From: a virus
Taxonomy: Duplodnaviria; Caudoviricetes
DNA: 29,390 nt
IMG/VR virus record: IMGVR_UViG_3300025015_000383
Span: 1-29,390 of that record
Reading direction: 5' to 3' (one strand)
The position numbers and the translations under genes are program-made. The notes under the pieces are model-generated. The model ran no database searches and was not told where the DNA came from. It worked only from the letters and a program-made list of their open reading frames with translations. Shown here one piece after another: positions 4,515-29,390 of this stretch (its first letter is position 1; every line of letters starts with the position of its first letter).

Positions 4515-4534
4515 ATTTAAAGATACAAATATTT

Positions 4535-6997
4535 TTAAAAAGAACCTACTGCTGGCTGTTTAGTATTTGAAACAATGCTTTTTAATTCTATTACGGCTAA
4601 TTGTAATTGCGTTACTGTTTCTGCGGTATTTTTCTCTATACCCACAAGATGATTGACTCCCATAAGAGTATAATCTTTGCTAATACGAATATCATCTGAT
4701 GTACGTCTCCATATACCGGCCAACTCCGTCCCGGTCTGCTCTGAAATCTGTCTCTGGATACCCATCGAAAGACCCTGATTTAAAACCTCTCCCCCTATAT
4801 TTAATCCGCTTGTCATAGTTTCATAAGCCTCTTGGTTTTCATCTGCTATTTCTGCTATCCTTCTGGCATTTTCTTCTTTTTCAATATTAGTAATACCTCC
4901 GGTCATTGCACCCTTCAACCATTCCATGTAAGCAAGCATTTTAGGACTTGATAAAAGTGAATCTGTAAATACACTCATCACGGCATCAATTAACACCTGG
5001 TTCATATAGTCTGCAAAATCATCAACTGATGTTTTCCCTTCCTGAAATCCTTGTGCAATAACATCTGCAATAGTATTTTCTGTAATACCCCCTGTAAGAA
5101 AATCTGTTAATGCCTGTTCAGCATCTTCAATTAATCTGTTAGTCTCTTCGAGTGCATCATTAACTTCCTTTAATTTATTTTTTCCTGAACCAACCAATCC
5201 ACCCAAAATACCGGTCCGATGACTTGCTATCTGAATTTCAAGTTCTTTTTGTCTCTTCTCTTGAGTTACTTTTAATTGTCTGAGATACTCAAGTTCGTCT
5301 TTTCTGGCTTGTTCCTGACCTCCTTTTCTTTCTGATAGTTCAATTAACCGTGCCTGTTCCTCAAGTAGTACATTAATATGCTCTATCTGTGATTCAAATT
5401 TCATAGCAGCAGTCGGGATATATGATATTATCCCGGCTAACATTTTACCTGCTGCGCTGGCTATTGCAGCAGGATTACCGGTAGCCATCGCAATGAAAGT
5501 ATCCAGTGAACTATTTAGCAATGCCATTGACTTTTCGTCCAGTCCAATTTGTTCTCCGATCTGATAAACCAGGTCAGCAGCAGCATTAACTATATGATTC
5601 CTTAAATCTAACTGTTCTTTTAATAGTTCTATTTGATCTTTGTCATTTTCTGCAATGTCTTTCTGCATCTTCTTATACCACTCAACGCTCCCGGAAGCTA
5701 ATTTAAAATTATCCGCCCCTTCTTTGCTAAATTCAGAGCCTATTGCCGGAGTCTTCCCTTTTCTTACTAAAGCCCTGTTAAGTATTGAATATCCTTTGCC
5801 GGGATCTATCTTACTAAGTATTTCATCTATTTTTTCATATTCTTTTTTAATAGCTTCGAGAGCCTCTTTTGCTTTTTGTTTCTCAGAATCATACAATTCC
5901 TTTCTTGCAGCCATTAAACTATTAGTTGCCCTCACTTGTCTCTGATCACTTTCTTTCTGCAGATTGATTTCCTCTGCAATGGCCTCCTCAAGTTTCTTCC
6001 TATCTTCATCCCTTAATTGTCCCCGTTTTTCGAGTTCAACATTCTGATTCCTTATATTCAGAATTACCCACTGCTGATGCTTAATTTCATTCTGCGCTGT
6101 CCTATTTTCCAGATCAAGAGCCTTTTGAAGTGCAGTTATTCTTACTTCTGGCTTCTTTGTATCATCAGCATAAAGTAACCTGGCCTTAACAATTTCTGCG
6201 TTAGCTTTTGCCCTTGGTACGATCATTGCACGTTCAGCATCTCCCAATTCTTGCTGTCTTCGTGTATAATTTTCAGCAGCCTCTCCGGCTTCATTCATTG
6301 ATGTTGTAAGGTCATCAAAATATTTCCTTACTCCGGGAATAAAGTTTGCAGTTGTCGAAATTAATTTCAATCCATTTACAAGTCTGGTTCCCCAGGGAGT
6401 CGCCTCATCACCTTTCTCCCCGACCATTGATTTTCCTAACTTAATAAATTCACCCTGCAATACTCCAACCGCCGCCTTTAGTCCAGATATTTTTCGTTCA
6501 AGTAATTCAATCCCTTCCTGCGACCTTGTTAAAAATGATAATACAGTTTCTTTCAGTACCTTAACTACCGCCTGAACAGAAACATAAGCAAGCGCCATTC
6601 TGCCTATCTTATCTATAATTCCAGTAGAAGACTTTTCAATCTGAACATTCCCTTCAATCTGTTGTTTTTGTAATTTAGCAAGCTGCGCCTGTTCTTCTGC
6701 GAGTGCTCTCTTAACTGACTTTAATTCCCCTGCAGCAGCCATTTTACTCCGTCCCGCCGTTGCATCATCATAGGCTTTTTGAAGTCGCTTAACATCCTGC
6801 TCAATAGATTTGATGAGAGTCTTTTGCTCAGCGATAGCCTGTTTAAATGATTTGGTCATTTTATTAAGGCCCTGATCTGCCTGACTTCCGGCCTTCTCAA
6901 CACCTTTTGCCCAGTCTCTGACAGTTTTATTACTGTTTCGGATAGCAGTTTCAAGCTGTACGGTATTTAACGAGGCATCAAAAATTATACTACTCAT
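4535..6997 (-). CDS. Tape measure protein
   Basis: 820 aa, largely helical/coiled-coil and A/E/K/Q-rich; directly follows the tail assembly chaperone; C-terminal ISEQTGTELAG motif typical of Bacteroidota phage tape measure proteins. Confidence 0.85.
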   Translation of the reverse strand: MSSIIFDASLNTVQLETAIRNSNKTVRDWAKGVEKAGSQADQGLNKMTKSFKQAIAEQKTLIKSIEQDVKRLQKAYDDATAGRSKMAAAGELKSVKRALAEEQAQLAKLQKQQIEGNVQIEKSSTGIIDKIGRMALAYVSVQAVVKVLKETVLSFLTRSQEGIELLERKISGLKAAVGVLQGEFIKLGKSMVGEKGDEATPWGTRLVNGLKLISTTANFIPGVRKYFDDLTTSMNEAGEAAENYTRRQQELGDAERAMIVPRAKANAEIVKARLLYADDTKKPEVRITALQKALDLENRTAQNEIKHQQWVILNIRNQNVELEKRGQLRDEDRKKLEEAIAEEINLQKESDQRQVRATNSLMAARKELYDSEKQKAKEALEAIKKEYEKIDEILSKIDPGKGYSILNRALVRKGKTPAIGSEFSKEGADNFKLASGSVEWYKKMQKDIAENDKDQIELLKEQLDLRNHIVNAAADLVYQIGEQIGLDEKSMALLNSSLDTFIAMATGNPAAIASAAGKMLAGIISYIPTAAMKFESQIEHINVLLEEQARLIELSERKGGQEQARKDELEYLRQLKVTQEKRQKELEIQIASHRTGILGGLVGSGKNKLKEVNDALEETNRLIEDAEQALTDFLTGGITENTIADVIAQGFQEGKTSVDDFADYMNQVLIDAVMSVFTDSLLSSPKMLAYMEWLKGAMTGGITNIEKEENARRIAEIADENQEAYETMTSGLNIGGEVLNQGLSMGIQRQISEQTGTELAGIWRRTSDDIRISKDYTLMGVNHLVGIEKNTAETVTQLQLAVIELKSIVSNTKQPAVGSF

Positions 6998-8287: not shown

Positions 8288-8295
8288 CAAAGATA
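8288..8295 (-). promoter_or_regulatory. Bacteroidota -7 promoter box TATCTTTG, 3 nt upstream of the GIY-YIG ATG
   Basis: Exact TAnnTTTG match; the paralog has TATCTTTA (4518-4525) at the same spacing. Confidence 0.55.
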
Positions 8296-12902: not shown

Positions 12903-13154
12903 ATGGTAATAACAGTTGAAGAGTATGCCAAAATGTTCCCCTCGAAAGGGAAAGAAGTCTCCCCAAAAACTATTATAAGACGTTGTATAAATGGTTTTTT
13001 GCCCTCACATCACCACGCAAGGAAACTACCAGGCGATCAGGGCCAATGGGTGATTGAAATAGCGGATGAAATTCCCAAAATAGTCGTAACAAAGACAGAT
13101 CCACCAAAACCGGATATAAGAAGTATGAATCGGAAATATTTTAATTTTCAGTAA
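12903..13154 (+). CDS. Small DNA-binding protein (excisionase/MerR-like winged HTH)
   Basis: ITVEEYAKMF...VSPKTIIRRCINGFLP...ARKL...QWVI pattern. It is the only convincing plus-strand gene, occupies otherwise free space and ends at a shared terminator. Confidence 0.65.
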   Translation: MVITVEEYAKMFPSKGKEVSPKTIIRRCINGFLPSHHHARKLPGDQGQWVIEIADEIPKIVVTKTDPPKPDIRSMNRKYFNFQ

Positions 13155-13155
13155 T

Positions 13156-13188
13156 AAAAAAAGCCCCTCCGATATGGAGAGGCTCTTT
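13156..13188. terminator. Intrinsic terminator between convergent genes, probably bidirectional
   Basis: Minus strand AGCCTCTCC-ATATC-GGAGGGGCT-TTTTTT; the plus strand has a weaker CTCTTT tail. Confidence 0.8.
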
Positions 13189-13204
13189 CCGAAAAACCTG
13201 GGGG

Positions 13205-13638: not shown

Positions 13639-14544
13639 TTATTTTTTATTGGTTTGTATAAATGTATCTATCATTGTAACTGTTTTGTTGAGATTATTAA
13701 CAAGTTTCATGTGCCAGTTAATCTGTTCCCAAAATTTTGGGACGCCACCAACTTCACGATAAAGTGTAGTTAATCTTAAAAGCTTATCCTGTAAGTCAGA
13801 ATTAAGAGAATCAACAGATTTTATTTCATTCTCAATAGTTCTGGAAGTATCAATAGATTCTTTCTTCTTCTTTGGAACTATCACTTCTTCAATAACAGCA
13901 TTAGTCATTGCCCTTTGTCCACCCTCAGATTCTTTATATTTTGCAACGACTGCTTTTTGCTTTCCTTTTGGAATATCAAACTCCTTAACAGAAGTAATAA
14001 AGTTTCTGGCAGCCCTTTCGGTAGGTAAACTATCTATTGCTTCCCGATCAATTTTATCATCCTGAATCATCTTCAGACGTTCAAGAGAATAGGAAACCCG
14101 GCTTTCATTCCAGTTAAGAAACTGTGAAATCATATCCTTACCTATAATAGTTAGGCGTCCATGGGAGCTTAACTTCTTCACTTCTTCCGGGTGCTGCTCA
14201 AGAAATTGCTTTGTGACCCTGACCGTCTCATCAATGACTCTCGGCAATGCTGTCCATGCTTCCATGTTCTCATTTGCCATAATCTTTATCATTGTTGCAT
14301 CATCCAATTCCTTCACCGGAATATCAACAAAGTCTATGGACTTAAACACTTCTCTTATTGCTGCCAGTCTGTGATGACCATAAGCAATTTGATATTTGTT
14401 TCCATGTTTCCGGGAAAGTATATTATCCCAAAATCCTGTTTGCCGGATAGATTCAATAAGGCTTTTCACCTTTGCCTCATCCATAGGATAATTATTCATA
14501 TCCCTGTATGGATTAGGTTCTAAATTCTTAATTTGTACTTTCAT
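13639..14544 (-). CDS. ParB/Srx N-terminal domain protein
   Basis: LEPNPYR...LIESIRQTGFWDNILSR...YQIAYGHHRLAA...MANEN, followed by a possible HTH (ISQFLNWNESRVSYSL). Confidence 0.85.
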   Translation of the reverse strand: MKVQIKNLEPNPYRDMNNYPMDEAKVKSLIESIRQTGFWDNILSRKHGNKYQIAYGHHRLAAIREVFKSIDFVDIPVKELDDATMIKIMANENMEAWTALPRVIDETVRVTKQFLEQHPEEVKKLSSHGRLTIIGKDMISQFLNWNESRVSYSLERLKMIQDDKIDREAIDSLPTERAARNFITSVKEFDIPKGKQKAVVAKYKESEGGQRAMTNAVIEEVIVPKKKKESIDTSRTIENEIKSVDSLNSDLQDKLLRLTTLYREVGGVPKFWEQINWHMKLVNNLNKTVTMIDTFIQTNKK

Positions 14545-14682
14545 ATATAAAAAAATTAAGCCCCACTAAAAAGAAAAAGCCAGAGGTAAGTACAACCGAA
14601 CCTTCTGGACAATTCCCCGTTAATGGGGCAATTTTAAAATTAAATAATTTCTTCATGTTGTACTTTTAGAATACCAAAGATA
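14528..14682 (-). promoter_or_regulatory. Structured leader A: promoter + 42-aa uORF + interleaved stems, upstream of the ParB-like gene
   Basis: TATCTTTG 14682-14675; arm AAGTACAAC 14665-14657 complementary to GTTGTACTT 14596-14588; stems GCCCCATTAA/TTAGTGGGGC and CCAGAAGG/CCTCTGG; uORF 14656-14528. Confidence 0.65.
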
Positions 14683-14685
14683 AAC

Positions 14686-15729
14686 CTATTTTTTGATTTT
14701 CATAATGTTTTCGATAATATTTTGATTGTCCTCAATCCAGAACGGAGTACTTTGGTATTTTGAATACCTGTCAAAATTTTCTTTTACATACTTTTGAAAC
14801 TTATCTGAATAGGTTGTAATCTGTTTAGCCTTTAGCGGTTCATTACCTTTTAGGTATGCGTTAAAATCATCAGGAGGCATTAAAACAGCGACCGCATGAC
14901 AAAGGCAAATCGGATGCCAGCCTACCCAAACAAATGTTTTTGGATAAGTACCTTCACATTCATCACAAATATCAAATATTTTATGCTGTGCTGAAAGTGA
15001 TATTTTTTTACCAATAACCATCGGAAGTTTCAACCAACGAATATGGTCTGCCAGAAGATACGCCTGATTCGTGTTTGTACGTGCCACACGCATAGCATTT
15101 TTATAAGCCGAGTTATACACTCCCTGGCCTGGTTTATTCTCCAACATTGCCTTACTTGCAATAAGACGGCCATTATTATCACGTACACGACGAAACAAAG
15201 CATCTGGATTTTTAAGGTAAGTTCTAATCCTGCGTGAAATAGTACTGGCACTGTCCCCATTCGCTAATCCGATACCTAAATGAATTTTAAGTTCGCCCCT
15301 TAATTGTTTTGCTACCTGCCAAACTGAATCTGAAAGTGTTTTAGTTCCATGCTTGCCGGAAATAAACGCTTTGAGTGCCGGAATGTTAGGCAAAAAGTAT
15401 TTTGCAGATTGTACTGCTTTAATTTTGCCAATAGTTGAAAGGTAATCTTTTACTATCTGATCATTTTTAGAGTTACTTAGTCCCCAGCTCTTTTCAATAT
15501 CCAGTTCAGTTAAATCCAAAACGTCCTTATGAAACGACTCAATTATGATGTCAATCTTTTTATTGATAGCACCGTTATATCGGAAACTTTTTGAAAATTT
15601 TATAGAAGGATCATTTGAAAGTAAGGCAAATTGTTCAGCAACCCGGTTAAATATTTCCCGGAATTTTTTATCATACTGCAATTGCCGTTTTAAAAACTTA
15701 TTGCGATATTCGAGTGAATGATCAGGCAT
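14686..15729 (-). CDS. Minor head/head morphogenesis protein (SPP1 gp7/Mu gpF-like)
   Basis: LSDSVW, NPDALFRRVRD, GQGVYNSAYKNAMRVARTNTNQAY, CDECEGTYPK...GWHPICLC motifs. Confidence 0.88.
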   Translation of the reverse strand: MPDHSLEYRNKFLKRQLQYDKKFREIFNRVAEQFALLSNDPSIKFSKSFRYNGAINKKIDIIIESFHKDVLDLTELDIEKSWGLSNSKNDQIVKDYLSTIGKIKAVQSAKYFLPNIPALKAFISGKHGTKTLSDSVWQVAKQLRGELKIHLGIGLANGDSASTISRRIRTYLKNPDALFRRVRDNNGRLIASKAMLENKPGQGVYNSAYKNAMRVARTNTNQAYLLADHIRWLKLPMVIGKKISLSAQHKIFDICDECEGTYPKTFVWVGWHPICLCHAVAVLMPPDDFNAYLKGNEPLKAKQITTYSDKFQKYVKENFDRYSKYQSTPFWIEDNQNIIENIMKIKK

Positions 15730-16549
15730 AACCTTCTGATTTAAGTACCAAAGTTACACCATTTTTTAATTGTCCCATCTGATCGCACCATTTAATTGAC
15801 CGTTCAAAATTATCATTTAAGGCCGGTAACATATCATCATAAATTCCAGGCTTTAAATAATTACAAACAGCAACTATCTCTTCCACGTCATTAACATCAA
15901 TAATCCCGTCCATATTAAAGAAGTCGCTAATATTCCTGCACCCATAATAAATCGGTACTGTCCGGGTCTGAAAGCAATCAATAAGTTTTTCGGTAAAGAA
16001 ATTAGCTATTGAAGTATTCTCAATCGCAATATGAAACATGGAATCAAATAGCGGATTTTTTGAGTCACCCAAAATTAACTGCCCTGTATAGTCTGCCTCA
16101 TTCCACGGAACGAATGTATGAAAATGTTTTGCATTGCCGCTTAGATAGAATTTTTTCGGAATGGTTATCATATCCTTTTTTCTCCATAATTCATGCCTTA
16201 ATTCGTGACCTTCTAAAGTCTGAATATTCTTACCCCCGACGACAGTTGAAACGCTAAACTCTTTTCTTGGTTCATAACCTTTGACCCACGTATTCGGAAA
16301 GTGAAATAACCTTGCTTTTGGATTCGTCTGCAGAACTTCTTCCTGGTATGTCAGTACGTAATTATAATAACCTTTATACTTTTGTACAAGTGGAACCATA
16401 GGCGACCGCCACGGCTCTTGTAAGATGATAATACGAAGCGAATCCGGCGGGATATCTTCTAAAGTAAATTGATCTATATAGACATTGACTTCTTTGTTGC
16501 AGTCAATATCTAAATTGATCGGATAGGCGTAATGAAATTTAACCTTCAT
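15722..16549 (-). CDS. GT10-like glycosyltransferase (alpha-1,3/4-fucosyltransferase family)
   Basis: Family motif FHIAIEN...FFTEKLIDCF...VPIYYG. Confidence 0.85.
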   Translation of the reverse strand: MKVKFHYAYPINLDIDCNKEVNVYIDQFTLEDIPPDSLRIIILQEPWRSPMVPLVQKYKGYYNYVLTYQEEVLQTNPKARLFHFPNTWVKGYEPRKEFSVSTVVGGKNIQTLEGHELRHELWRKKDMITIPKKFYLSGNAKHFHTFVPWNEADYTGQLILGDSKNPLFDSMFHIAIENTSIANFFTEKLIDCFQTRTVPIYYGCRNISDFFNMDGIIDVNDVEEIVAVCNYLKPGIYDDMLPALNDNFERSIKWCDQMGQLKNGVTLVLKSEGYA

Positions 16550-17307
16550 GATATAAAGTTCCAGTCATTTAAAAAAACATCTGTTATCTCATTTGCAATA
16601 GTCCCGGAAAACCAAACAGCCGGAGCGCAAACAATTTTATTTGTATTTTCATTCAGGTATGCACCCCAACGGGAATAAGTCGAATTTGCTATTATATTGT
16701 GTGTGCATTTAGTCTGCAGGTAGAAATCAATGTAATCAGGGACACCTTCGCTAAATATTACCCTTTGATCTTTAAATGTCTCTTTACACCACGGAATGTC
16801 ATCAGAGATAATATAAATATGGTCTATCTGAGTCTTTGAATCCATAAAAGATAAAGCCTTTTTATAGTAATTTTCACCACAAATATGACTCGCATTTATA
16901 AGATAGTCACCCCTTCTGACGTGAAGCGAAACACTATTTATAAAATCAAACTTTATACTTTCAAGCATCTCGTGATCTTTGAATAGTTCAATAATTTCCT
17001 TCCGGTATTTGTCGAAATATTTCTCACTTGAAAAGTACCCACCGATCATTAGATTCTTTTGGTAAGGAATAGGGTCATAATTATACCTTCGTTCCTGATA
17101 ATATGCTTCTTGCTTCCAACCTGGCGGTAAATCTTTGAGCTTTCTGAAAACGTTATTCCGGTATGTTGATGGATGAACTCCCTGACTCAATGAACCCATA
17201 TTAAGATTAAAGGCACACTCATCATTATTTTCGAGTGCAAGGGCGTAAGCGGCTGCTATTTGAAACATCCGTCCCCCTAAACCACCACATAACATTGCTG
17301 AAATCAT
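16546..17307 (-). CDS. GT11 glycosyltransferase (alpha-1,2-fucosyl/colitosyltransferase family)
   Basis: GGLGGRMFQ, GYFSSEKYF, SLHVRRGDY, ISDDIPWCK, IIANSTYSRWGAYL motifs. Confidence 0.9.
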   Translation of the reverse strand: MISAMLCGGLGGRMFQIAAAYALALENNDECAFNLNMGSLSQGVHPSTYRNNVFRKLKDLPPGWKQEAYYQERRYNYDPIPYQKNLMIGGYFSSEKYFDKYRKEIIELFKDHEMLESIKFDFINSVSLHVRRGDYLINASHICGENYYKKALSFMDSKTQIDHIYIISDDIPWCKETFKDQRVIFSEGVPDYIDFYLQTKCTHNIIANSTYSRWGAYLNENTNKIVCAPAVWFSGTIANEITDVFLNDWNFIS

Positions 17308-18443
17308 CTGTTTAAAATTTCTATTATAAAGTCCATATCCTTTTCGCTTAAATCCTGATGATTAGGCAGATAAAATCCAAAGTTATGAATTAAATCAGCA
17401 TTTGGATATTTATAATTTCCATGTTTTTTCATCCAGAATGGTTGTTTTCCGATTGACCCCGCTATCAGTGGCCTGGTTACAACTCCATTTTCCTGCAGTT
17501 CCCTGACTATCCGGTCTTTTTTAATACTCACAACAGGATAGGCAAAATTTGAAACATAACCCCTTTCTTTAAGAATCAGAATATTATCTTTGATATGTTT
17601 CAGGTAGTACCGAAAATTATAGTTTCTTTTTTTGGAAAACCGAGCGAGTTTATCCAATTGTCTGAGTCCGATAAATGCCTGCAGATCAGTTGACCTTAAA
17701 TTAAGTCCCGGATAATAGAAAGTATAAAGAGAATTGAAATCTTCAACGTTCCACTTCTTTTTATGCCGCTGCGTTGTCTGGGCATCCCAATCACGATCCC
17801 ATCCGTGGTTACGCATCGAAACAAGAAAGTTATATAATTCGGTGTCGCTTGTATTTATAAAACCTCCCTCAATTGTACTCAAATGATGCCCATAATACAT
17901 GGAAAATACAGACGAATCGCCATACCGTCCCAGCATCTCAGCGCCAATACGTGAACCCATGCTCTCGCAGTTATCTTCAATTAATATAACATTAAATTCC
18001 TTGCATAGATTAACGATACTATCCATATCCGGGATTAATCCAAGGGGCGCAACGGAAATAAATATATCAGGCTTAAACTCGGCAAATATTTCTCTTAACT
18101 CTTTCAGGTCACATGACAGGTCCCTGAGATTGCAATCACAAAGCCGAACATCATAACCTAATAACATCGGAGAACTGACATCCGTGACCCAGCTCAATGC
18201 CGGAACCACTATCTTAGGATTATAACCAAGTATTTCCTTATATGCTGCCAAAAGCAAGAGAATACCTGACGATCCCGAATTGACAAAAACAGAATATTCA
18301 GTTCCGACCTTCTTTGCCCACTTAGATTCAAGTTCTTTTGTAAGGGGCCCTTTTGTTAGCTGTGGAATAGGGTCTTTTTGCAGCCATTCGATCAGTGCGT
18401 TGATATCTTCCCGGTCTATTGTATCACTTACAAGGTTTATCAT
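17304..18443 (-). CDS. colD: PLP-dependent DegT-family enzyme, ColD-like GDP-4-keto-6-deoxymannose 3-dehydratase
   Basis: VNSGSS, VPALSW, EDNCESMG, SMYYGHHLSTIEGG (His where aminotransferases have Lys), RNHGWDR, YPGLNLR; no Fe-S cysteine cluster. Confidence 0.7.
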   Translation of the reverse strand: MINLVSDTIDREDINALIEWLQKDPIPQLTKGPLTKELESKWAKKVGTEYSVFVNSGSSGILLLLAAYKEILGYNPKIVVPALSWVTDVSSPMLLGYDVRLCDCNLRDLSCDLKELREIFAEFKPDIFISVAPLGLIPDMDSIVNLCKEFNVILIEDNCESMGSRIGAEMLGRYGDSSVFSMYYGHHLSTIEGGFINTSDTELYNFLVSMRNHGWDRDWDAQTTQRHKKKWNVEDFNSLYTFYYPGLNLRSTDLQAFIGLRQLDKLARFSKKRNYNFRYYLKHIKDNILILKERGYVSNFAYPVVSIKKDRIVRELQENGVVTRPLIAGSIGKQPFWMKKHGNYKYPNADLIHNFGFYLPNHQDLSEKDMDFIIEILNR

Positions 18444-18907
18444 CTCTTTAAATTTAAATAAGTTGGTTTCCCGGAATAGATAATTTCTGACAAGTTAAAA
18501 CCTTCTTCCGGCACTAAAAAATTAATATTTTTGAACTGCTTTAATATCTCATGATCTGAAGCATCATGACTAAATCCCTCATGAGAGTAATCCTGACCCC
18601 TACCGGCTCCTGCAAGTATTACCGGGATGCTCTCATGGTCGAGGTATAGCCGAATCGCTTCCATTGGTCTGAAAATAAGAAATGGCGTGATTGTGTAAAC
18701 TACCGGGATACGACCCGACAAAGCTAATCCGACTGCCATAGTTATTGCTGCCTGCTCCGCTGCACCAACATTATAAAACTGATCCGGCATCTCTGATCTT
18801 ATACGGTCAGCATAAAAATAACCAAGGTCAATAGAAATAAGAATAATATTTTTATCCTTAACCATTAAATCATAAAGAGAATCAAAAAAGTACTTTCGCT
18901 GATTCAT
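18440..18907 (-). CDS. Transketolase-like pyrimidine-binding subunit (short, lacks the C-terminal domain)
   Basis: DLGY, FYNVGAAEQAAITMAVGLALSG, PFLIFRPMEAIR, GFSHDASD. Confidence 0.85.
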   Translation of the reverse strand: MNQRKYFFDSLYDLMVKDKNIILISIDLGYFYADRIRSEMPDQFYNVGAAEQAAITMAVGLALSGRIPVVYTITPFLIFRPMEAIRLYLDHESIPVILAGAGRGQDYSHEGFSHDASDHEILKQFKNINFLVPEEGFNLSEIIYSGKPTYLNLKR

Positions 18908-19451
18908 TTTTTCTTATTTTATGATCATATCTACTATGACATGGTACACACATTCTTTTAAAATCAGACTTATCTCTTATATATTTCCCTGAAAGATTTG
19001 CCCAATGATATTTTCTATTTGAGTCACTAAGTCCGCAAACTTCACATCCTATTGGTTGTCCCAAATGTTTTGTTACCCAGTCATGGATACCATAATAACC
19101 TACCTTTTCGCCTTTCCATTTAGGATGTTTCGTTTCATCCATTCCAATTCTCGACCTTCCATCATAAGCACCAAAACAATTGCGTGAACAAAATATTTTT
19201 TCACCCCAACGTTTTATCCCATAAGAAGAAGCGACACCTTTTTTATTATAACTGGCAATATTATAATATTTTTTACCACACTCTAAACAATATTTATATT
19301 TTTCCGTTACTCTTTGATCTATCTGTTTCCTTTTACCACGGATAGCTTCAAAATAGCAATCTCTTGAACAAAATTTAGTTTTCCAGTTTTGATTTTTAGG
19401 AGAAAAATCAACTCCGCATTGTTTACATTTTAGTATTCTCATTGTTCTCAT
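18882..19451 (-). CDS. Zinc-finger/His-Me (HNH-like) endonuclease, probably a free-standing homing endonuclease
   Basis: Two CxxC...FCSxxC repeats, HPKWKG, then IHDWV...CEVC...YHWAN...CVPCH; start placed at ATG 19451, coupled to the uORF stop. Confidence 0.7.
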   Translation of the reverse strand: MRTMRILKCKQCGVDFSPKNQNWKTKFCSRDCYFEAIRGKRKQIDQRVTEKYKYCLECGKKYYNIASYNKKGVASSYGIKRWGEKIFCSRNCFGAYDGRSRIGMDETKHPKWKGEKVGYYGIHDWVTKHLGQPIGCEVCGLSDSNRKYHWANLSGKYIRDKSDFKRMCVPCHSRYDHKIRKNESAKVLF

Positions 19452-19590
19452 AAAAATTGCCCATACCAATTACAGAGGCGATCCAGTCGTGTAATATTAC
19501 ACAATTTGGCAATGTAACTGATATGGGACTTTTTGTTTTTCATAACTGAATCGCATTACAAATATATAAAATAATCAAATCAACTGCAAA
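19448..19590 (-). promoter_or_regulatory. Structured leader B: promoter + 31-aa uORF + interleaved stems, upstream of the HNH-like gene
   Basis: TTTG (19590-19587)-20 nt-TATATTTG (19566-19559); GCGATTCAGT/ACTGGATCGC; CCCATATCAGTTACA/TGTAATTGGTATGGG; uORF 19543-19448. Confidence 0.7.
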
Positions 19591-19598
19591 TTTTCTTC

Positions 19599-20135
19599 TC
19601 ATGATATGTAAAAATATACTGCCCCGTAATCCGGGAGGCTGTTAAATGTTATTTCCGGATGCCTTAACTTAAATTCTGCCAAAGCCGTAACAACACCCTC
19701 AATATTTACCGTATCATCCATTACAACAAATAACCTCTTCTTCTTTGCGAATAATTCTGCAAGTTGTAAATCTAAAGTGACATATTCAAAAGAATGGTTG
19801 CCATCAATAAATAAAACGTCTGGCTCAATAAGTTCATACAATTTCCCTTTCAAAAACGCTTCATCAGTCATATCAAAATGAAACACATTATCACAATCTT
19901 TTGTATTATTATAAAATACCTCTCTTATTGCAGTAAATAAATCACCTTTTCCAACTCCATTCCCTGATGTATGTCCATCCTCAATAAATGGATCAATAGA
20001 ATAGAATGTCTTGTCAGGGAATTTATTGCTTAACATTGCGATTCCCTCCCCATCATATGAACCTATTTCTAAATATACCTGATTACTGTATAAGTTATCA
20101 GTTATTATTCCTTCGTATAATTGCCTCGCTAACAT
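19599..20135 (-). CDS. Class I SAM-dependent methyltransferase (Methyltransf_24-like, probable sugar O-methyltransferase)
   Basis: YLEIGSYDGEG, YSIDPF, DVLFIDGNHSFEYVTLD, VMDD motifs. Confidence 0.85.
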   Translation of the reverse strand: MLARQLYEGIITDNLYSNQVYLEIGSYDGEGIAMLSNKFPDKTFYSIDPFIEDGHTSGNGVGKGDLFTAIREVFYNNTKDCDNVFHFDMTDEAFLKGKLYELIEPDVLFIDGNHSFEYVTLDLQLAELFAKKKRLFVVMDDTVNIEGVVTALAEFKLRHPEITFNSLPDYGAVYFYIS

Positions 20136-20713
20136 CAGATAGTTATATAATGTGCTGATAATCCTTTTAATCCATAATCTTCCACTTTTGTATATCTTAT
20201 TTCAATCTTTGGGAATATATGTATAACATTCCATTGCATCCAATCTTCTATAGAATCATAAGCTGAAAACCCGTTCCAATTAATGTAAACCTTTAAGTTT
20301 GTGACATTATATTTTCTAATCACATTTGCAGACTCGTAGATAATGCCTTCAAAAGCCTCCCCGTCAGAAATAAGACAATAGACGTTTTTTGTCCTGTCTG
20401 CCAGTGCCATCCCTACTGATATACCAAGTCCCATTCCGAGTGACCCGGTTGAACAATATATTTTATCTTCTAAATCCCGATGCGGATGTGTGCCATGTTT
20501 TAAGTAAAGTTTTTCAGCATCAAAACCATAGTATTTTTCAAGGATGCAATAAAGAGATAGTCCAGCATGTCCGCAGGAAAGGACAAATGGCTCATCTTCT
20601 TTTTTAATCCGGTAAATCTCATCAATTATCCCTAAAGATGTATAACAAGATCCAAGGTGAGATAATTTGTATTTTTTAGCTATTTCTGTTATTCTGCCAA
20701 GCATTTTCTCCAT
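20135..20713 (-). CDS. Transketolase-like ThDP-binding N-terminal subunit (short)
   Basis: SHLGSC, LSCGHAG, HPHRD, STGSLGMGLGISVGMALA, SDGEAFEG...N ThDP motif. Confidence 0.87.
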   Translation of the reverse strand: MEKMLGRITEIAKKYKLSHLGSCYTSLGIIDEIYRIKKEDEPFVLSCGHAGLSLYCILEKYYGFDAEKLYLKHGTHPHRDLEDKIYCSTGSLGMGLGISVGMALADRTKNVYCLISDGEAFEGIIYESANVIRKYNVTNLKVYINWNGFSAYDSIEDWMQWNVIHIFPKIEIRYTKVEDYGLKGLSAHYITI

Positions 20714-20758
20714 TTATGCGATGCTTCCTTTCTTATTAATTTCATGTCTTGTGAGTTT

Positions 20759-21499
20759 TTAATAGCGTGACATTGATTCATAAGTTCTTTTTAATCCTTC
20801 ATACATTCCAATATCTTTTACTCCCTCTTTACATACCCAATCTTCATTGTCATAGATCCTTAAAGTCCCTGATGTGTATTTCAGTTTCTTCCCGGAAATC
20901 TGTTCTAACATTCTTACAACTTCGAGGTTTGATATTTTGATCCCAGCACCTATTCGAGTCGCCCCGGCAAATAATGCTTCAACTGCACAGTCAATATAAA
21001 CCCAGTCATGGCAGGCTCTTTCATCAAGTATCATCTCTGCACCTGTATTCAGACAATCTATGATGGTAGGAATAAACCGGTGTTTCTGTTCACCGGGGCC
21101 ATAAATAGAATAAGGCCGGACGTTAATCACATTCTTATACATCCCTGCCAGTTGTTCACCGCAAAGCTTCGTTATGGAATAATATGTAGGCTTATCAAAG
21201 AAAGTTACTGATGAAGTCGATAGATTATAAAATGTCTTATAATTAAATTCTTTAGCGGCCTCCAAAAGATTGTATGTTCCGATAATGTTAGCATTTACCA
21301 CTCCTATAAAATCTCTCTGATAATACTGGTTGCCATAGGCTGCGAGGTGGATAATCACATCAGGATTATTTAAATAAAATAACTGCTTGAGTTGCTCAAT
21401 TGACTGGTGCCGTGGGATGGAAAATACTGATTTACCCTCCAGGTACTTTGTTATCGCAGTTCCTAAAAAACCTGACTGCCCGGAAATATAATAATTCAT
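20759..21499 (-). CDS. NAD-dependent epimerase/dehydratase/reductase (extended SDR)
   Basis: GQSGFLG, IIHLAA, NIIGTYNLLEA, YSITK, RPYSIYGP; start reassigned to ATG 21499, which gives an ATGA overlap with the upstream gene. Confidence 0.88.
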   Translation of the reverse strand: MNYYISGQSGFLGTAITKYLEGKSVFSIPRHQSIEQLKQLFYLNNPDVIIHLAAYGNQYYQRDFIGVVNANIIGTYNLLEAAKEFNYKTFYNLSTSSVTFFDKPTYYSITKLCGEQLAGMYKNVINVRPYSIYGPGEQKHRFIPTIIDCLNTGAEMILDERACHDWVYIDCAVEALFAGATRIGAGIKISNLEVVRMLEQISGKKLKYTSGTLRIYDNEDWVCKEGVKDIGMYEGLKRTYESMSRY

Positions 21500-21726
21500 A
21501 ACAGTCCCCCGTCCGGATGATAGTGATCGTAAATAAGAATTCCTATTACAAATATAGCCCATGCAAGTGTAGGAATCCATGCATATTTCGTATTGCCACT
21601 ATAATCCTCTGCCATACCATAAAACATTAATCCCCCCAGTATTATAAGTAACGCAATAACAAAAACTGCAACTATATTTTCCCATATAGTCCCCCACTTT
21701 ACTTCCTTTAATCTTATTGTTTTCAT
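21496..21726 (-). CDS. Small membrane protein (two hydrophobic helices)
   Basis: IVAVFVIALLIILGGLMFYG and AWIPTLAWAIFVIGILIY; tightly packed in the operon. Confidence 0.65.
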   Translation of the reverse strand: MKTIRLKEVKWGTIWENIVAVFVIALLIILGGLMFYGMAEDYSGNTKYAWIPTLAWAIFVIGILIYDHYHPDGGLL

Positions 21727-21736
21727 AATTTTGATA

Positions 21737-23014
21737 TTAAAATTTCTTTACAACTTTTTCAATGTATTCAAATATTTCACCTCCATAATGCGGCGCAGCT
21801 CCAATAAAAAATACTTTATCGAGTACTTTGTTTGCCTCTGGATAGTTTCTGTAATCATCATGAAAAGCGTAACCGGGATGCATCAGAATATTACCTGTAA
21901 AATAATTCCTTGTCTGGATGAGGTGTTTTTCAAGGTGTGCGACTAACTTATTTTTTAATCCGTCCTCGCAAATAAAAGGAGTCCCAAACCAACAAACATC
22001 AGCCCTGCCTAATGTCTGAACCCCATGCACTCCTGGAATCTTACTTACAATTTTCTCTATTATTGTTTTTGAATGTTTTCGCCGGGCCTCAATCTCTGTA
22101 AATTTGTCGAGCTGGACCAATCCTATTGCACCCTGTAAATCAAGTGGTTTAAGATTATATCCCATGTTTGAAAATACGTATTTATGATCGACAATCCCGT
22201 CATAAGCTTCGAGCCATTTATCAAACCGGTGGCCGCATGATCCTTTCAGTAACATATTATCTGAACCGATACAATTACAATCCCGTCCCCAATGAGCTAT
22301 ACTTGTCATAATTTCCATCAGGCCTTTATCATTAGTACTGATCATACCTCCTTCCCCGGTACATAGTGTATGCGCGGCATAAAATGAACAGGATGAAGCG
22401 ATACTATATTCATTCAGGTATTTCCCGTTCCACTTTGTCCCCAGAGAATCGCAGTTATCCAGGATCGGTTTCAATCCATACACATCACATAAATACAAGA
22501 GTCGGTCAATGTCCGGCGGATTACCAAGTACAGGACTTAAGAATATCGCTTTGGTACGATATCCTATCTTTGATTCAATTTGATCTAAGTCAAAATTCAG
22601 GGTGTTCCATTCAATATCTACAAATACCGGGTTGAGCCTATTTTGATAAAGCACAGATATTGTTGTCGGAAATCCAACTGATGAAACAATAACCTCATCT
22701 CCGTCCTGCCAGTTATAATATTTTTTTAGAGCGGCAATCATAACCAAATTAGCCGATGATCCAGAATTGACCATTAAAGAATAACCAGAATTAAATTTCC
22801 TACTGAATGCCTTTTCAAAAACATTAACCTGGCCGCCTGATGAAATCCACGTACCGTTAAGGAATGTATTTATTGCCGCTTCACTTTCTTTATTGTCCCA
22901 GTATGGACCGGAATAAGGAATGACAGTTTTACCTGGTTTGAAGTTCACAGAATTATAAAGATATGGTGCAACATGATTGCCAACTAAAGATTCTATTTTA
23001 TCAGGTAATATCAT
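21737..23014 (-). CDS. rfbH: RfbH/DdhC-like CDP-4-keto-6-deoxyglucose 3-dehydrase (E1)
   Basis: VNSGSSANL, GFPTT, DNCDSLG, SFYAAHTLCTGEGG (catalytic His), WGRDCNC...CGHRF Fe-S cysteines, DHKYVFSNMGYNLK. Confidence 0.85.
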   Translation of the reverse strand: MILPDKIESLVGNHVAPYLYNSVNFKPGKTVIPYSGPYWDNKESEAAINTFLNGTWISSGGQVNVFEKAFSRKFNSGYSLMVNSGSSANLVMIAALKKYYNWQDGDEVIVSSVGFPTTISVLYQNRLNPVFVDIEWNTLNFDLDQIESKIGYRTKAIFLSPVLGNPPDIDRLLYLCDVYGLKPILDNCDSLGTKWNGKYLNEYSIASSCSFYAAHTLCTGEGGMISTNDKGLMEIMTSIAHWGRDCNCIGSDNMLLKGSCGHRFDKWLEAYDGIVDHKYVFSNMGYNLKPLDLQGAIGLVQLDKFTEIEARRKHSKTIIEKIVSKIPGVHGVQTLGRADVCWFGTPFICEDGLKNKLVAHLEKHLIQTRNYFTGNILMHPGYAFHDDYRNYPEANKVLDKVFFIGAAPHYGGEIFEYIEKVVKKF

Positions 23015-23748
23015 AGATCAAGTGTTAAAATATGTTTTGCTCTATATTCCTTATTTTGTCTTAATATTTCAAAAACTCTTTGGTTTATCTCCCATTTTGA
23101 CGGGTCCCATGCCGTTGAATGATGCTGATGAAGCACAATAGGGTTATCGGTTATTTCAACCTTCAATCCTAACATTGCTATCTGATGAAGGAAGTAATTA
23201 TCTTCATAAGCGCAACCATCTTTAAACCGTTCATCAAAACCATTTAACTTAATCAGGTTCTTTGTTGTAATTGCTGAACAGAAGTTATAACCTACCGGTC
23301 TTATCTCAGGATGATTATACCACGATCTTTGCCCATCCGTAGTGCATGGCCTATTCAGCATCTCGAATGACCCAGGCGTTTCGTCCTTGCCTAAAGAATA
23401 ACAACCAAAGGAAATATATGTTTTGTCCGTTACCTGTTTGGCACGGCTTAATATGTCCCCGTGATGATAGCACTCTGACTGTTGCATGATAATAATATCC
23501 GGGTTTTCCTGAATTGCATAGAATAAACCCATGTTAATAATGCCTGTATAGATATGCACCCACGGTTCGGTAGTGAATTTAATTACCCGGACTTTGTAAG
23601 GCAAATCAGGGAATATAATATCTTCTTTGCTGTTATCATCAACTATAATCACACTGAAATCTTTAGGATCGTATTGAAGTAACGACTTCAAAGTCCATTT
23701 TAAGGATTCCGGGCGGTTGATGTATGTCATTAAAATAACTACTTTCAT
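23011..23748 (-). CDS. GT2/GT7C-like glycosyltransferase
   Basis: TYINR, IIVDDNS, NGFDERFKDGCAYEDNYF, LHQHH. Confidence 0.85.
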   Translation of the reverse strand: MKVVILMTYINRPESLKWTLKSLLQYDPKDFSVIIVDDNSKEDIIFPDLPYKVRVIKFTTEPWVHIYTGIINMGLFYAIQENPDIIIMQQSECYHHGDILSRAKQVTDKTYISFGCYSLGKDETPGSFEMLNRPCTTDGQRSWYNHPEIRPVGYNFCSAITTKNLIKLNGFDERFKDGCAYEDNYFLHQIAMLGLKVEITDNPIVLHQHHSTAWDPSKWEINQRVFEILRQNKEYRAKHILTLDL

Positions 23749-24131
23749 GATTCCATTTCTAATTCGTTTCCGGTTAAAGCAAAGTAAAGGTTCTGAAGCT
23801 GATGGACATATTTAAATTCAGTCCAGCAACAATCATCAAAATTAAACTTAGGGTAAAAGAGTTTGCAATCCGTTTCTATTACAAATCTGTCATCCCCCTC
23901 CCACCCTATGCCCTCTTTATGTTCAAATACCTGACCATTAAGTCCAATGCTTTTAAATCCGAATTTTTCTAACCACAACTCGGTTAATGGGACAGGAATT
24001 GCCCAACCTGGATGTTCAGAAAGCGCATAAAATTCACTGGCTTTTATAGGCCTTATCTCATTAGGGAACTTTCCCCCTCCTGCAATTAGAAGCTCTACTA
24101 TATTCCCGATTCTTAATTCCTGTATTTTCAT
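23745..24131 (-). CDS. Conserved phage hypothetical protein
   Basis: ELRIGN...PVPLTELWLEKFGF...YVHQLQNLYFALTGNEL pattern, common in Bacteroidota phages. Confidence 0.7.
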   Translation of the reverse strand: MKIQELRIGNIVELLIAGGGKFPNEIRPIKASEFYALSEHPGWAIPVPLTELWLEKFGFKSIGLNGQVFEHKEGIGWEGDDRFVIETDCKLFYPKFNFDDCCWTEFKYVHQLQNLYFALTGNELEMES

Positions 24132-24760
24132 CTGAATATTCCTCCCATACTATGTGATTCCCGACAAGTTTTGAAGTAATACTGCTCATCCGCTGGCATA
24201 TCTTCAAATTTAAAGTAATACCACGGCATATGGCGACAGGTATATGGCCTGTTAGTCCTTATCCCTTTAGTTGAATGAAAAGGTACTTTGTATAATGCAA
24301 ACGTGGTATCGACAGGTGCGTCATAATACCTGCCATCAAGTGGATTCTGCCAGAATTGTATTTCCCAGTCAAGAGGACAAAAAGGTGTTTTTGGAAGGTC
24401 TTTTATTTCAAGTGAAAACCCGCATTTATCAAATTGAGGGTAACGATTTAATCCTTCCTCCAAAACACTCAGAAAGTCATCCGGAATGCCTGTTAAGTCC
24501 AAGTCAGGATCGGTGACAATGTAATTACCTGTTATTCCGAGCTTCTCCAAAAGGTTCTGTTCCCAGACTACCTTGTAACCGTAATTCTGAGGCATGCGGA
24601 TAATCTGATAAGGAGTTGTTTTGTAGTATTCTAATAATGGCGGGTAATCAGAATTGTTATCGACAAAAATAGGATCAACATTTATCTCCCAAAGCCAATC
24701 CGCAATTTTTACGGGCAGTTGCAAGCGATTGTACACAATGATAAATGCCTTACACTTCAT
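24128..24760 (-). CDS. GT-A fold (GT2-like) glycosyltransferase
   Basis: IIVYNR, FVDNNSDYPPLLEYY, YIVTDPDL (DxD), APVDTTFALY, RHMPWY; start reassigned to ATG 24760. Confidence 0.75.
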   Translation of the reverse strand: MKCKAFIIVYNRLQLPVKIADWLWEINVDPIFVDNNSDYPPLLEYYKTTPYQIIRMPQNYGYKVVWEQNLLEKLGITGNYIVTDPDLDLTGIPDDFLSVLEEGLNRYPQFDKCGFSLEIKDLPKTPFCPLDWEIQFWQNPLDGRYYDAPVDTTFALYKVPFHSTKGIRTNRPYTCRHMPWYYFKFEDMPADEQYYFKTCRESHSMGGIFR

Positions 24761-25337
24761 GACAAACAAAATATTCCGGTGTTTCAATCTTCTTACCTTC
24801 AAACTTCCGTAGTTGCTGGATGAACTGATAATCGTGACCATATCCGGCCTTTTCCCATTTCAACTTAAGGCGTGAAGCATGGCAGATATTCGAGGTTCCG
24901 CAATGACCGTACAAAGAAACGTCAATTTGCCGCTCAATGAACTCAGTGCCTGACCATCTGAAGTCGTTAAAATACAGCCAGTTCTCAGTATTATCCATCT
25001 GATCATTGATTTTCCGTAAATGATCCGGGCCATACTTATCGTCATTGTCAATATAGATAATATACTTACCTTTTGCGGCCTCAATACCGGCGTTCCGGGG
25101 TGTATTCGACCATAGCTCTTTACGTTCGACTCTTAAAAGATTAATCCGCTTATCGGTGAAATTGTGCTTAACTACAAATTCAGTTAAAGGGCATCCATCA
25201 GCCACTATGATTAACTCAAAGTTTTCGTATGACTGCTTTAAAACTGATTCCACAGCCCGGATGAGTTTTTTATCTTTGCCGGTCGCTGATCCCGGGTAGT
25301 CGGAAAGCAGGGATGCCATAATCACGCTAAACTTCAT
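24750..25337 (-). CDS. GT2 glycosyltransferase
   Basis: FSVIM, RAVESVLKQSYENFELIIVADG, RNAGIEAAKGKYIIYIDNDD; start reassigned to ATG 25337. Confidence 0.9.
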   Translation of the reverse strand: MKFSVIMASLLSDYPGSATGKDKKLIRAVESVLKQSYENFELIIVADGCPLTEFVVKHNFTDKRINLLRVERKELWSNTPRNAGIEAAKGKYIIYIDNDDKYGPDHLRKINDQMDNTENWLYFNDFRWSGTEFIERQIDVSLYGHCGTSNICHASRLKLKWEKAGYGHDYQFIQQLRKFEGKKIETPEYFVCHEV

Positions 25338-25338
25338 A

Positions 25339-25533
25339 CTATTTCCAATTAGTTGACCTAAATAAAAATCCACATAAAAGATTAATTCCTAAACTCTGCC
25401 AAAAAGTTAGTTTCATTAATCCAAATATTGTTGGCATAAGCCAATTCCAAAGCCACATTACTGGAAATGCCAAAAGAAGTCCAATTCCAATTATTAAAGC
25501 AATTACGCCCAAAATTTTAATTACTTCTTCCAT
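25339..25533 (-). CDS. Small membrane protein
   Basis: MEEVIKILGVIALIIGIGLLLAFPVMWLWNWLMPTIFGLMKLTFWQSLGINLL; start reassigned to ATG 25533. Confidence 0.7.
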   Translation of the reverse strand: MEEVIKILGVIALIIGIGLLLAFPVMWLWNWLMPTIFGLMKLTFWQSLGINLLCGFLFRSTNWK

Positions 25534-25537
25534 CTTG

Positions 25538-25661
25538 TCAGTTATTAAAAGCCCCGCAAACAAAAGGGCTATCAACTACACCCGAGGGGATAATTGCTTT
25601 TGTTTTTGGGGCTGTTACTGTTTTTGATTGCATAGTGTAGTTAATAGCCGTAACAAATTTA
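25538..25661 (-). promoter_or_regulatory. Structured leader C: promoter + 31-aa uORF + interleaved stems, upstream of the membrane protein/GT operon
   Basis: TAAATTTG 25661-25654; GGCTATTAACTACAC/GTGTAGTTGATAGCC; AGCCCC-AA-AAACAAAAG/CTTTTGTTT-GC-GGGGCT; uORF 25633-25538. Confidence 0.7.
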
Positions 25662-28200: not shown

Positions 28201-29390
28201 TTAAATTTTTCCTAACAGGCTTGAAAGGTTTGTTTTTTTACGATTATGTCCGATAACCTCTTCTAGAATCACATAACGCCCTGCGTCAATACTGTTATGT
28301 ACTAATATGCCATTTGCGAAATATTCATGCACTCCTTCGACGTGGATATCGAATACCTGCATCTTTTCGCCTTTTACGCAATGCTTTTGCTTTACAGTTT
28401 GGATGACAGTATTTTGATATTCCTGAATGTCTTGTTTGATATTCTCTTCCGCAAAATTGACAGATAAGCGTTTTTTGTCCTTTATCCTTCCATCCTTCTT
28501 TACTATGTTCTGAGTGCCATTCTCTTCCTTCTTTTGAACCATGCCATTCTTTTGCTTTTTCAATACCCGCATTATGAAATTTATCAAACCATTCTTTGTC
28601 TCGCGAAAACCGCGACTTCCCATGTTCTGACAAATGCTGATGCTTTTCTTTAATTTCAATATTTTCGGGTTGATTATCCCATGTATTTTCGTTTTTATGA
28701 TGAACAGTAAACCCCTTAGGAACTTTGCCATTATAAAATTCCCAGACTGCGACATGCATCCGTTTTGTTCCTCTTGAAAAGTATCGTTCTCTTGGATAAA
28801 GTCTGTATGTTTTCCCATTAAATGTTTGCTCAGGAATACCTGCATCCCCGATTCTAATTGTGAAATCTGTTCCCATCCTTGCGTTGTTTTAATTAAATGA
28901 TCTTCTGTACAATGCAAAGATAATGAAAACATATCGAATTGTATCGAATAGTTATTAACTTGTTTTAATCCATTATGATATAATTTTATAACCCGACTAA
29001 ATCCTTCCGAAGTTAAAACATCATCAGATGTTTTTATATCACAAATATTTTTTATTCCTTCTTTCGTAATTATTTTAGTATCTGAAACAAAACAGTGATT
29101 AAACTCATCAACTGGCTGGTTAAGATATCTACCTTCCTTATCCTGATCATAAACGTAATTATCTATTTCCTTCTTAATATTAGTCGACCTCTTGGTGATT
29201 TTGAGATTATACTCTTTCATCTTTGCCAGCCCGGCATTGATTGATCCCTGAAACTTTTCAACCGCATGGATATTTAACCCTGCATTATGTATCTCATCTA
29301 TTAGTCTGGGGTCTGCACTTTCAGAAATAATCTTTTTATTTTGACATTCTGATTTTAAGACTTTAATAATATCATTTGTCAACATTTTAG
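28201..29390 (-). CDS. terL: Terminase large subunit, C-terminal nuclease domain, intein-containing; 5' end outside the window
   Basis: SESADPRLIDEI, GSINAG, EIDNYVY, PVDEFNH|SIDAGRY after removing the intein; the frame stays open to the window edge. Confidence 0.92.
   Translation of the reverse strand, partial: KMLTNDIIKVLKSECQNKKIISESADPRLIDEIHNAGLNIHAVEKFQGSINAGLAKMKEYNLKITKRSTNIKKEIDNYVYDQDKEGRYLNQPVDEFNHCFVSDTKIITKEGIKNICDIKTSDDVLTSEGFSRVIKLYHNGLKQVNNYSIQFDMFSLSLHCTEDHLIKTTQGWEQISQLESGMQVFLSKHLMGKHTDFIQENDTFQEEQNGCMSQSGNFIMAKFLRGLLFIIKTKIHGIINPKILKLKKSISICQNMGSRGFRETKNGLINFIMRVLKKQKNGMVQKKEENGTQNIVKKDGRIKDKKRLSVNFAEENIKQDIQEYQNTVIQTVKQKHCVKGEKMQVFDIHVEGVHEYFANGILVHNSIDAGRYVILEEVIGHNRKKTNLSSLLGKI
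28294..29094 (-). mobile_element. Intein (267 aa) in the terminase nuclease active-site motif
   Basis: Starts CFVSDTKIIT (block A); TEDHLI (block B); VFDIHVEG (block F); YFANGILVHN followed by Ser+1 (block G). Confidence 0.93.
28325..28876 (-). CDS. HNH homing endonuclease nested out-of-frame inside the intein
   Basis: MHVAVWEFYNGKVPKGFTVHHKNENTWDNQPENIE...H HNH motif; C-terminal CQFC...YCHPNC zinc finger; own ATG and TGA. Confidence 0.88.
   Translation of the reverse strand: MGTDFTIRIGDAGIPEQTFNGKTYRLYPRERYFSRGTKRMHVAVWEFYNGKVPKGFTVHHKNENTWDNQPENIEIKEKHQHLSEHGKSRFSRDKEWFDKFHNAGIEKAKEWHGSKEGREWHSEHSKEGWKDKGQKTLICQFCGREYQTRHSGISKYCHPNCKAKALRKRRKDAGIRYPRRRSA

Follow-up and report, generated by a model that had tools for sequence, protein, structure and literature searches.

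Three sequence-unrelated leaders of a tailed phage share one RNA pairing architecture ahead of accessory genes

The 29,390 nucleotides of IMG/VR virus record IMGVR_UViG_3300025015_000383 analyzed here (hereafter the window) cover the structural region of a tailed phage, in which nearly every gene lies on the minus strand. Three of these genes, which code for a ParB-like protein, an HNH-like endonuclease and a membrane protein, are each preceded by a leader, and the leaders, here called A, B and C, are assembled from the same parts in the same order. Why should three leaders with no sequence in common be built alike? We find that the architecture recurs before accessory genes of Bacteroidota phages and that it has been selected for RNA pairing, as the initial annotation of this DNA had supposed; compensatory changes in three families of homologues and the controls on a structural descriptor both support this.

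Leaders A, B and C

Each leader lies on the minus strand and opens with a TAnnTTTG box, whose upstream end is at 14682 in A, 19566 in B and 25661 in C. A short 5′ arm follows, then an upstream open reading frame (uORF), and within it a long hairpin (S2) containing the complement of the arm (the anti-arm). The helix that arm and anti-arm can form (S1) crosses the hairpin in the order S1a-S2a-S1b-S2b, and this order, predicted at the outset, was recovered in all three leaders. The arm ends 0 nt before the uORF ATG in every case; only the length first given for the arm of C, 15 nt, needed correction, to 16 nt. The uORFs, of 42, 31 and 31 codons, keep to the range of 31 to 42 codons first reported. 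The U-rich tract said to follow each hairpin is present, but it is short or interrupted (3–5 U in family C, broken in A and B).

In leader A, the box (a −7 element) occupies 14675-14682, the 9-nt arm 14657-14665, and the hairpin 14549-14654, with its core at 14560-14629 and the anti-arm, at 14588-14596, in the terminal loop. The uORF (14528-14656), for which Pfam holds no match, stops 17 nt inside the gene behind it, its cargo, which encodes a 301-aa protein with a ParB N-terminal domain (13639-14544; PF02195, E 3e-08). A second, partial copy of the arm lies in the first cargo codons (14533-14541) and is a possible second target; it scores −7.7 kcal/mol, the top rank among 40 cargo starts. In leader B, the box lies at 19559-19566, with a TTTG 20 nt upstream, the 11-nt arm at 19544-19554, at the predicted transcript start, and the hairpin at 19452-19533 (core 19460-19527, anti-arm 19478-19488); the uORF (19448-19543; 29 codons in locus L186) meets its cargo, a 189-aa HNH-like endonuclease (18882-19451; phrog_1271, E 2.6e-07), in an ATGA overlap. 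In leader C, the box is at 25654-25661 and the 16-nt arm at 25634-25649, again at the predicted transcript start; the hairpin (25539-25620, core 25550-25613, anti-arm 25567-25582) includes a run of four U, and the uORF (25538-25633) stops 4 nt before an exchangeable 64-aa membrane protein gene (25339-25533). Behind that cargo stands a family-2 glycosyltransferase gene (24750-25337), the constant downstream gene at this site.

The three leaders are indeed unrelated in sequence: no match longer than 10 nt is common to them, and a profile of family C, the homologues of leader C, finds only C in the window. Folding z-scores are −4.5, −3.6 and −2.8 for A, B and C on the minus strand, and −3.2, −2.2 and −2.6 on the plus strand. 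The G-U pairs in the continuous helices number 0/1 in A, 2/2 in B and 2/0 in C (S1/S2 core), and the single appositions within Watson-Crick stems of family C comprise nine G-U, seven others and no A-C. According to a section of PMC6847099, the Flavobacterium promoter carries the box TAHHTTTG and transcripts start 4–5 nt downstream. The box of A fits this form, and the leader boxes probably act as promoters.

How readily does such an arrangement arise by chance? A loose duplex descriptor was dropped, as it gave 10 matches in the window and 6.1 per shuffled window, with at least 3 in 128 of 138 shuffles. The strict descriptor demands a continuous arm helix of at least 8 bp starting 2–10 nt after the box, a crossing hairpin of at least 6 bp and a U-rich tail. 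With thresholds tuned on A, B and C after these had been seen, it accepts 3 of 50 window boxes, namely A, B and C, compared with 88 of 67,258 boxes in 1,863 shuffled windows, only one of which held three. Across 78 non-redundant related loci (585 kb; 34 of 112 were left out as identical or redundant), it accepts 17 of 340 coding-strand boxes and none of 316 on the other strand, compared with 0.83 per shuffle round; 14 of these 17 belong to family C, and some were known before the test. It also missed the related leaders of L264, L265 and L288 and the B copy of L186.

A second pattern, which makes for a cleaner test, fixes only the box and the hairpin base. Among 120 loci listed of about 650 estimated, it gave 102 distinct matches in 56 clusters; 26 clusters pass the strict test, compared with 71 of 2,240 when the arm is shuffled, and 30 fail. 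In 401 genomes of the host phylum it matched seven (the reversed control, five), none of which passes. An arm-biased pattern returned 25 stretches, and those lacking the TA of the box had no anti-arm.

Compensatory changes in the arm helix, the check first suggested for this locus, are found in homologues of all three leaders. Family C numbers 34 distinct homologues (35 were found, and one containing an N was left out), 33 of them complete and 31 aligned. In the aligned copies 19 of 28 pairs have changed on both sides, 10 of 15 in S1; 0–4 of 500 shuffles did as well, and controls slid along the alignment pair at 39–47%, compared with 81%. All 33 complete copies can form S1, at −8.3 to −26.2 kcal/mol. 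The arm starts 4–5 nt after the box in 23 of them, and the sense strand is the more stable in 28. Family B has a single homologue, that of L186, in which a two-base change in the arm is matched in the anti-arm. Arm A differs in letters, with a matching anti-arm, in L288 (a three-base compensatory change), L266, L265, L264, L200 and L008.

The pairing is also specific. L008:1127-1270 holds a fourth leader of the same phage, of the A type and outside the window, followed by a 55-aa ORF and a replication initiator gene. Each of the four arms pairs with the loop of its own leader and with no other (−13.6 to −26.2 kcal/mol for cognate pairs, −4.2 to −10.3 for foreign ones), and every anti-arm pairs more strongly with its own arm than with anything else in the window, in A narrowly (−11.3 vs −10.6). 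In family A the own loop is the best partner in six of seven rows; in family C own loops pair at −18.5 and foreign loops at −11.9 kcal/mol, 494 of 524 swaps being worse.

Upstream frames, cargo and relatives

Most family-C uORFs begin with ATG (28 of 34; GTG in one), and five copies have no start. The frame is open in 21 of 27 copies, whereas 5.2 would be expected from shuffling; this test replaced a comparison of frames (0, +1 and +2 open in 19, 0 and 6 of 23 copies), which was dropped because ATGA itself closes frame +1 and because its pattern missed 5 of the 28 ATG copies. Frames and peptides differ between copies, and no control codons are conserved. The uORF is thus favored but dispensable. 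Two candidate explanations were rejected on these grounds: a leader-peptide attenuator with a required, conserved uORF (five of 34 copies lack the start, five stop early and the peptides differ) and a type I toxin-antitoxin system (the uORFs are not conserved and have no Pfam match). Nor can masking of the uORF start be the whole task of the arm helix, as had been proposed, since S1 is kept in the five start-less copies and in a mostly uORF-less form described below.

The uORF stop was described as overlapping or abutting the next gene, and in A, B and C it does lie near the cargo start. Elsewhere the rule is looser: only 14 of the 31 family-C copies with a cargo have a tight junction, seven with overlap and seven with a stop within 4 nt; in six the stop lies 5–30 nt away, and the others have early stops (five), no start (four) or a fused or open frame (two). 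An open frame almost guarantees abutment, because in 28 of 31 copies the spacer carries stops in two or three frames. At L186:2990 a family-C uORF continues in frame into an HNH cargo, the fusion counting 202 codons.

The leaders stand before accessory genes, as first noted, and in family C the cargo is exchanged. Leader C occupies 25 of 33 sites between two glycosyltransferase homologues and is absent from eight; among 31 copies the cargo falls into 18 clusters, which include HNH, endonuclease VII-like and GIY-YIG genes, and in seven the glycosyltransferase follows the leader directly. An A-type leader accompanies three of nine non-identical loci with a ParB homologue, and two others, those of L030 and L008, lie at replication initiators or just upstream of them; a pattern scan for further A copies gave one new member among 16 stretches. 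The same kind of scan for B, also in 16 stretches, gave none, and the HNH cargo of B used as a query found only three loci, all identical.

Leader B lies where another gene once began. A 20-codon remnant of the start of a transketolase C-subunit (19540-19602, minus strand) overlaps the stop of a methyltransferase gene, crosses the box and arm of B and ends in a stop that overlaps the uORF ATG. The remnant is equally long in L186, so that in both B copies it links the upstream stop to the uORF start, and in L187, L192 and L200 the same start opens an intact gene of 150–153 aa. B and its nuclease interrupt the start of the transketolase subunit gene.

Of the 26 passing clusters, 21 depart from the combination of uORF and cargo; the majority of the 21 lack a uORF and have longer arms and an opposite-strand gene starting 15–19 nt upstream. 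A uORF-less form occurs in gut Mu-like prophages (the L178, L058, L059, L065, L076 and L105 clusters), with about 30 bp of 5′ pairing and 3–8 U, usually free-standing. A search of assembled contigs with one Mu-like locus, L103, gave related alleles in three RNA runs and one other run. Hankyphage carries a copy (BK010646, from 40693 on the minus strand; L178:40550-40693) that converges on the flanking gene; the opposite-strand gene near its promoter box codes for 80 aa with a weak Mor-like match below cut-off, and a term search of the accessible part of the hankyphage paper (PMC12135933) found neither a small RNA nor a terminator mentioned. In L030, a relative of the window phage, positions 6565-6760 hold a full C4-like cassette with two addresses, their complements and a downstream copy, and with the same box-then-arm start; it precedes an 80-aa ORF and a Rha/ANT antirepressor gene and has no Rfam match. 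The crossing order returns in a more compact leader (a short arm, an extra hairpin and a small pseudoknot), seen in L026 after 4315 and at L019:1444; the short ORF behind it in L026 starts like the HNH cargos.

As to the setting, the window encodes terminase, portal, a sugar and glycosyltransferase cluster, head morphogenesis, capsid and tail genes. The host is probably a member of the Bacteroidota, given the TAnnTTTG boxes and the portal protein, whose sole relative in the genome collections (65% identity) comes from an uncultured Bacteroidetes. The sugar biosynthesis cluster (15722-25373, minus strand), between the portal and head morphogenesis genes, comprises two DegT aminotransferases, an epimerase, the split transketolase and glycosyltransferases of families 2, 10 and 11. 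For the C-terminal part of the terminase (28201-29385, minus strand) a weak intein (Hint) match was obtained. Each of the two GIY-YIG/NUMOD3 endonuclease genes has a TATCTTT(G/A) box just 3 nt 5′ of the ATG (8288-8295 and 4517-4524, minus strand), so they are possibly leaderless, or the box is a weak promoter. An opposite-strand 83-aa ORF (12903-13154, plus strand), without a match in Pfam or PHROG, converges on a strong terminator-like hairpin near 13155-13190.

A proposed lock and its rivals

Folding suggests an order of events. S1 appears in the predicted nascent folds of 32 of 33 family-C copies, with a probability near 1 on the growing RNA, and S2 in the full-length folds of 27. At full length S2 lies 6–11 kcal/mol below S1 in A, B, C and the fourth leader, and in hankyphage S1 stays lower; the program used cannot score a pseudoknot of S1 and S2 together. 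We propose, with a probability that we would place near 45%, that each leader is an independent, self-made RNA lock resembling P4 CI, through which the cargo is expressed at first and then shut down. The leader would be a promoter-proximal RNA module whose first 9–16 bases pair with a private complement in its own hairpin. S1 should form first and delay S2, letting the polymerase read through, while a ribosome started on the uORF would keep S2 open and bring ribosomes to the cargo start. The finished RNA should then relax into the more stable S2, exposing part of the anti-arm. Short or processed S2 RNAs may accumulate and bind the arms of new transcripts in trans; this would remove both S1 and uORF initiation, so that S2 forms and the transcript terminates, suffers polarity or carries an untranslated cargo. 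Expression would thus come as a burst in a naive cell and then stay low, with one address per module. A short RNA can be the product, because a free-standing version with 3–8 U exists. In A, L266 and L200 a UUCG directly precedes the address and fits the YUNR loop motif of antisense RNAs. In B the upstream 20-codon frame might serve as a relay that lets late read-through transcripts bypass the lock.

Several observations weigh against this proposal. In the predicted hairpin folds, 8 of 9 anti-arm positions are unpaired in A, but only 6 of 11 in B and 7 of 16 in C, where the anti-arm is thus free only in part. The U runs are weak (3–5 long in 25 family-C copies, interrupted in A and B), and an unprocessed short RNA, which would still include the arm, could lock itself. 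Cargo starts do not in general offer a second target (own −4.92, foreign −4.86; permutation 0.40, n=40), and such a site ranks first only for A of the window and L288. Arms of different family-C phages still cross-pair, at a mean of −11.9, and among 16 disjoint nearest pairs a swap is worse in eight, neutral in five and better in three; the homologues are related, and the counts are not independent events. Finally, addresses that do not cross and arms that covary are expected of pairing in cis as well.

This last point leads to what we consider a serious possibility, although one short of probable: that the leader is a cis-only kinetic attenuator or dose limiter. Nascent S1 would antiterminate and briefly hide the uORF start, and S2, or a pseudoknot of S1 and S2, would set the arrival of ribosomes at the cargo; ribosome loading would serve as the input, or the device would have none and give nucleases and replication initiators a fixed low dose. 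The near-certain S1 of nascent folds, the covariation (explained equally well, as it requires cis pairing only), the lack of a general second target, the mostly open uORF and the many endonuclease-like or replication-initiator cargos all suit such a device. It accounts poorly for the retention of S1 where the uORF has no start (5 of 34) and in free-standing copies without a same-strand gene behind, and for the A-type leaders, whose address occupies a terminal loop with a closing stem of its own.

The free-standing Mu-like version could also mean that the unit is the small non-coding RNA itself, either a pseudoknot that protects its 5′ end or an RNA that regulates others, and that the genes behind only use leak-through from its promoter. 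The diversity of the cargo (18 clusters in 31 copies) and the seven copies with the glycosyltransferase directly behind agree with this. We nevertheless think it improbable, as A, B and C have no common primary sequence, each anti-arm in the window pairs best with its own arm (A narrowly), and 28–29 of 34 copies retain a uORF start where the arm ends. A structure acting in DNA, either a single-stranded signal or a recombination platform for cassette exchange, might be suspected from cargo exchanged directly behind the hairpin, from the eight of 33 orthologous sites without a leader and from the insertion that B marks in the transketolase start; the restriction to coding-strand boxes (17 of 340 vs 0 of 316), nine G-U and no A-C appositions, the greater stability of the sense strand in 28 of 33 copies and the fixed spacing to the promoter box make it very unlikely. 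Ordinary terminators or chance complementarity behind ordinary promoters, suggested by the loose descriptor and by the 30 of 56 clusters and all seven chromosomal matches that fail the strict test, are largely refuted by the strict descriptor, the arm-shuffle control (26 of 56 vs 71 of 2,240) and compensatory changes in three separate families.

A wider idea can be entertained, which we hold to be rather doubtful: that Bacteroidota phages use a minimal, freely re-addressable one-hairpin RNA lock as a general plug-in promoter module, several per genome, and that in its hankyphage form this device gates antisense transcription that enters the late operon. An accessory gene, homing nuclease or replication initiator would then arrive with its own orthogonal RNA repressor in its leader, and would gain entry-only expression and address-specific silencing of incoming copies with no protein repressor. 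Little has been described of how Bacteroidota phages control their genes, and we know of no use of Shine-Dalgarno pairing by Bacteroidota hosts, which a lock at the 5′ end would therefore suit. Because the address changes, the class is invisible to sequence-family searches. Action in trans would explain how add-on genes inside a late operon are quieted one by one and would offer a set of orthogonal RNA regulators for Bacteroides. Hankyphage, a cultured prophage with a copy, makes the question testable now.

Comparison with known systems

The nearest analogues are those named at the outset, P4 CI and P1 C4, in which a loop further along the transcript is complementary to a target at its 5′ end. 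In P1 and P7 the layout is a1b1 - c4 - a2b2 - icd - ant (Rfam RF01695). The leaders share with it the short 5′-end address, the complement in a loop and the small ORF beside the downstream gene, and the L030 cassette before the Rha/ANT gene has the full c4 layout; A, B and C differ in having no general a2b2 site, no antirepressor behind them and a dispensable uORF. In leader-peptide attenuators and in CopA-tap-repA of plasmid R1, translation of a uORF opens the structure before a coupled gene. The A-type leaders of L030 and L008 likewise precede replication initiators, whereas the leaders have no conserved peptide or control codons and their antisense lies on the same strand, not on a counter-transcript.

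Gifsy-1 IsrK-orf45-anrP, as treated in part of PMC4825925, has a short terminated and a long read-through form from one promoter, which we predict for the leaders, and a uORF coupled to the next gene; it differs in that IsrK activates in trans, where the leaders would repress, and no sequence or Rfam match connects the two. Searches with Rfam C4, c4-2 and isrK gave no match, only four unrelated sub-threshold hits in the window (E≤5) and three unrelated ones in 20 loci (E≤1). Lists of c4 motifs appear in portions of PMC2864571, for Proteobacteria and phages, and PMC5737381. The literature searched, which covers the large automated catalogues only in part, does not describe this class, and its short motifs are absent from the parts of the PMC8040213 and PMC10690425 supplements that were available, tables that may hold no sequences. 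With no Rfam match, no general second target and different cargo, the leaders are not members of the C4/CI family.

The likeness to P4 is closer in logic. The relevant sections of PMC4825925 and PMC10111431 describe CI pairing with seqA and seqC, and PMC10111431 adds that translation over the CI region prevents termination. As in the seqA/CI/seqC and kil-eta arrangement outlined there, the leaders place target and complement on one transcript close to the promoter, run an ORF over the structured region, are predicted to tie translation to termination and belong to a mobile element. They depart from it in having one target and a single hairpin of about 100 nt where P4 has a processed multi-stem RNA, and in having several addresses per phage and accessory cargo where P4 has an immunity operon. 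The leaders are a real variant, uncatalogued in the literature searched, and likely a stripped-down Bacteroidota counterpart of the P4 RNA immunity switch.

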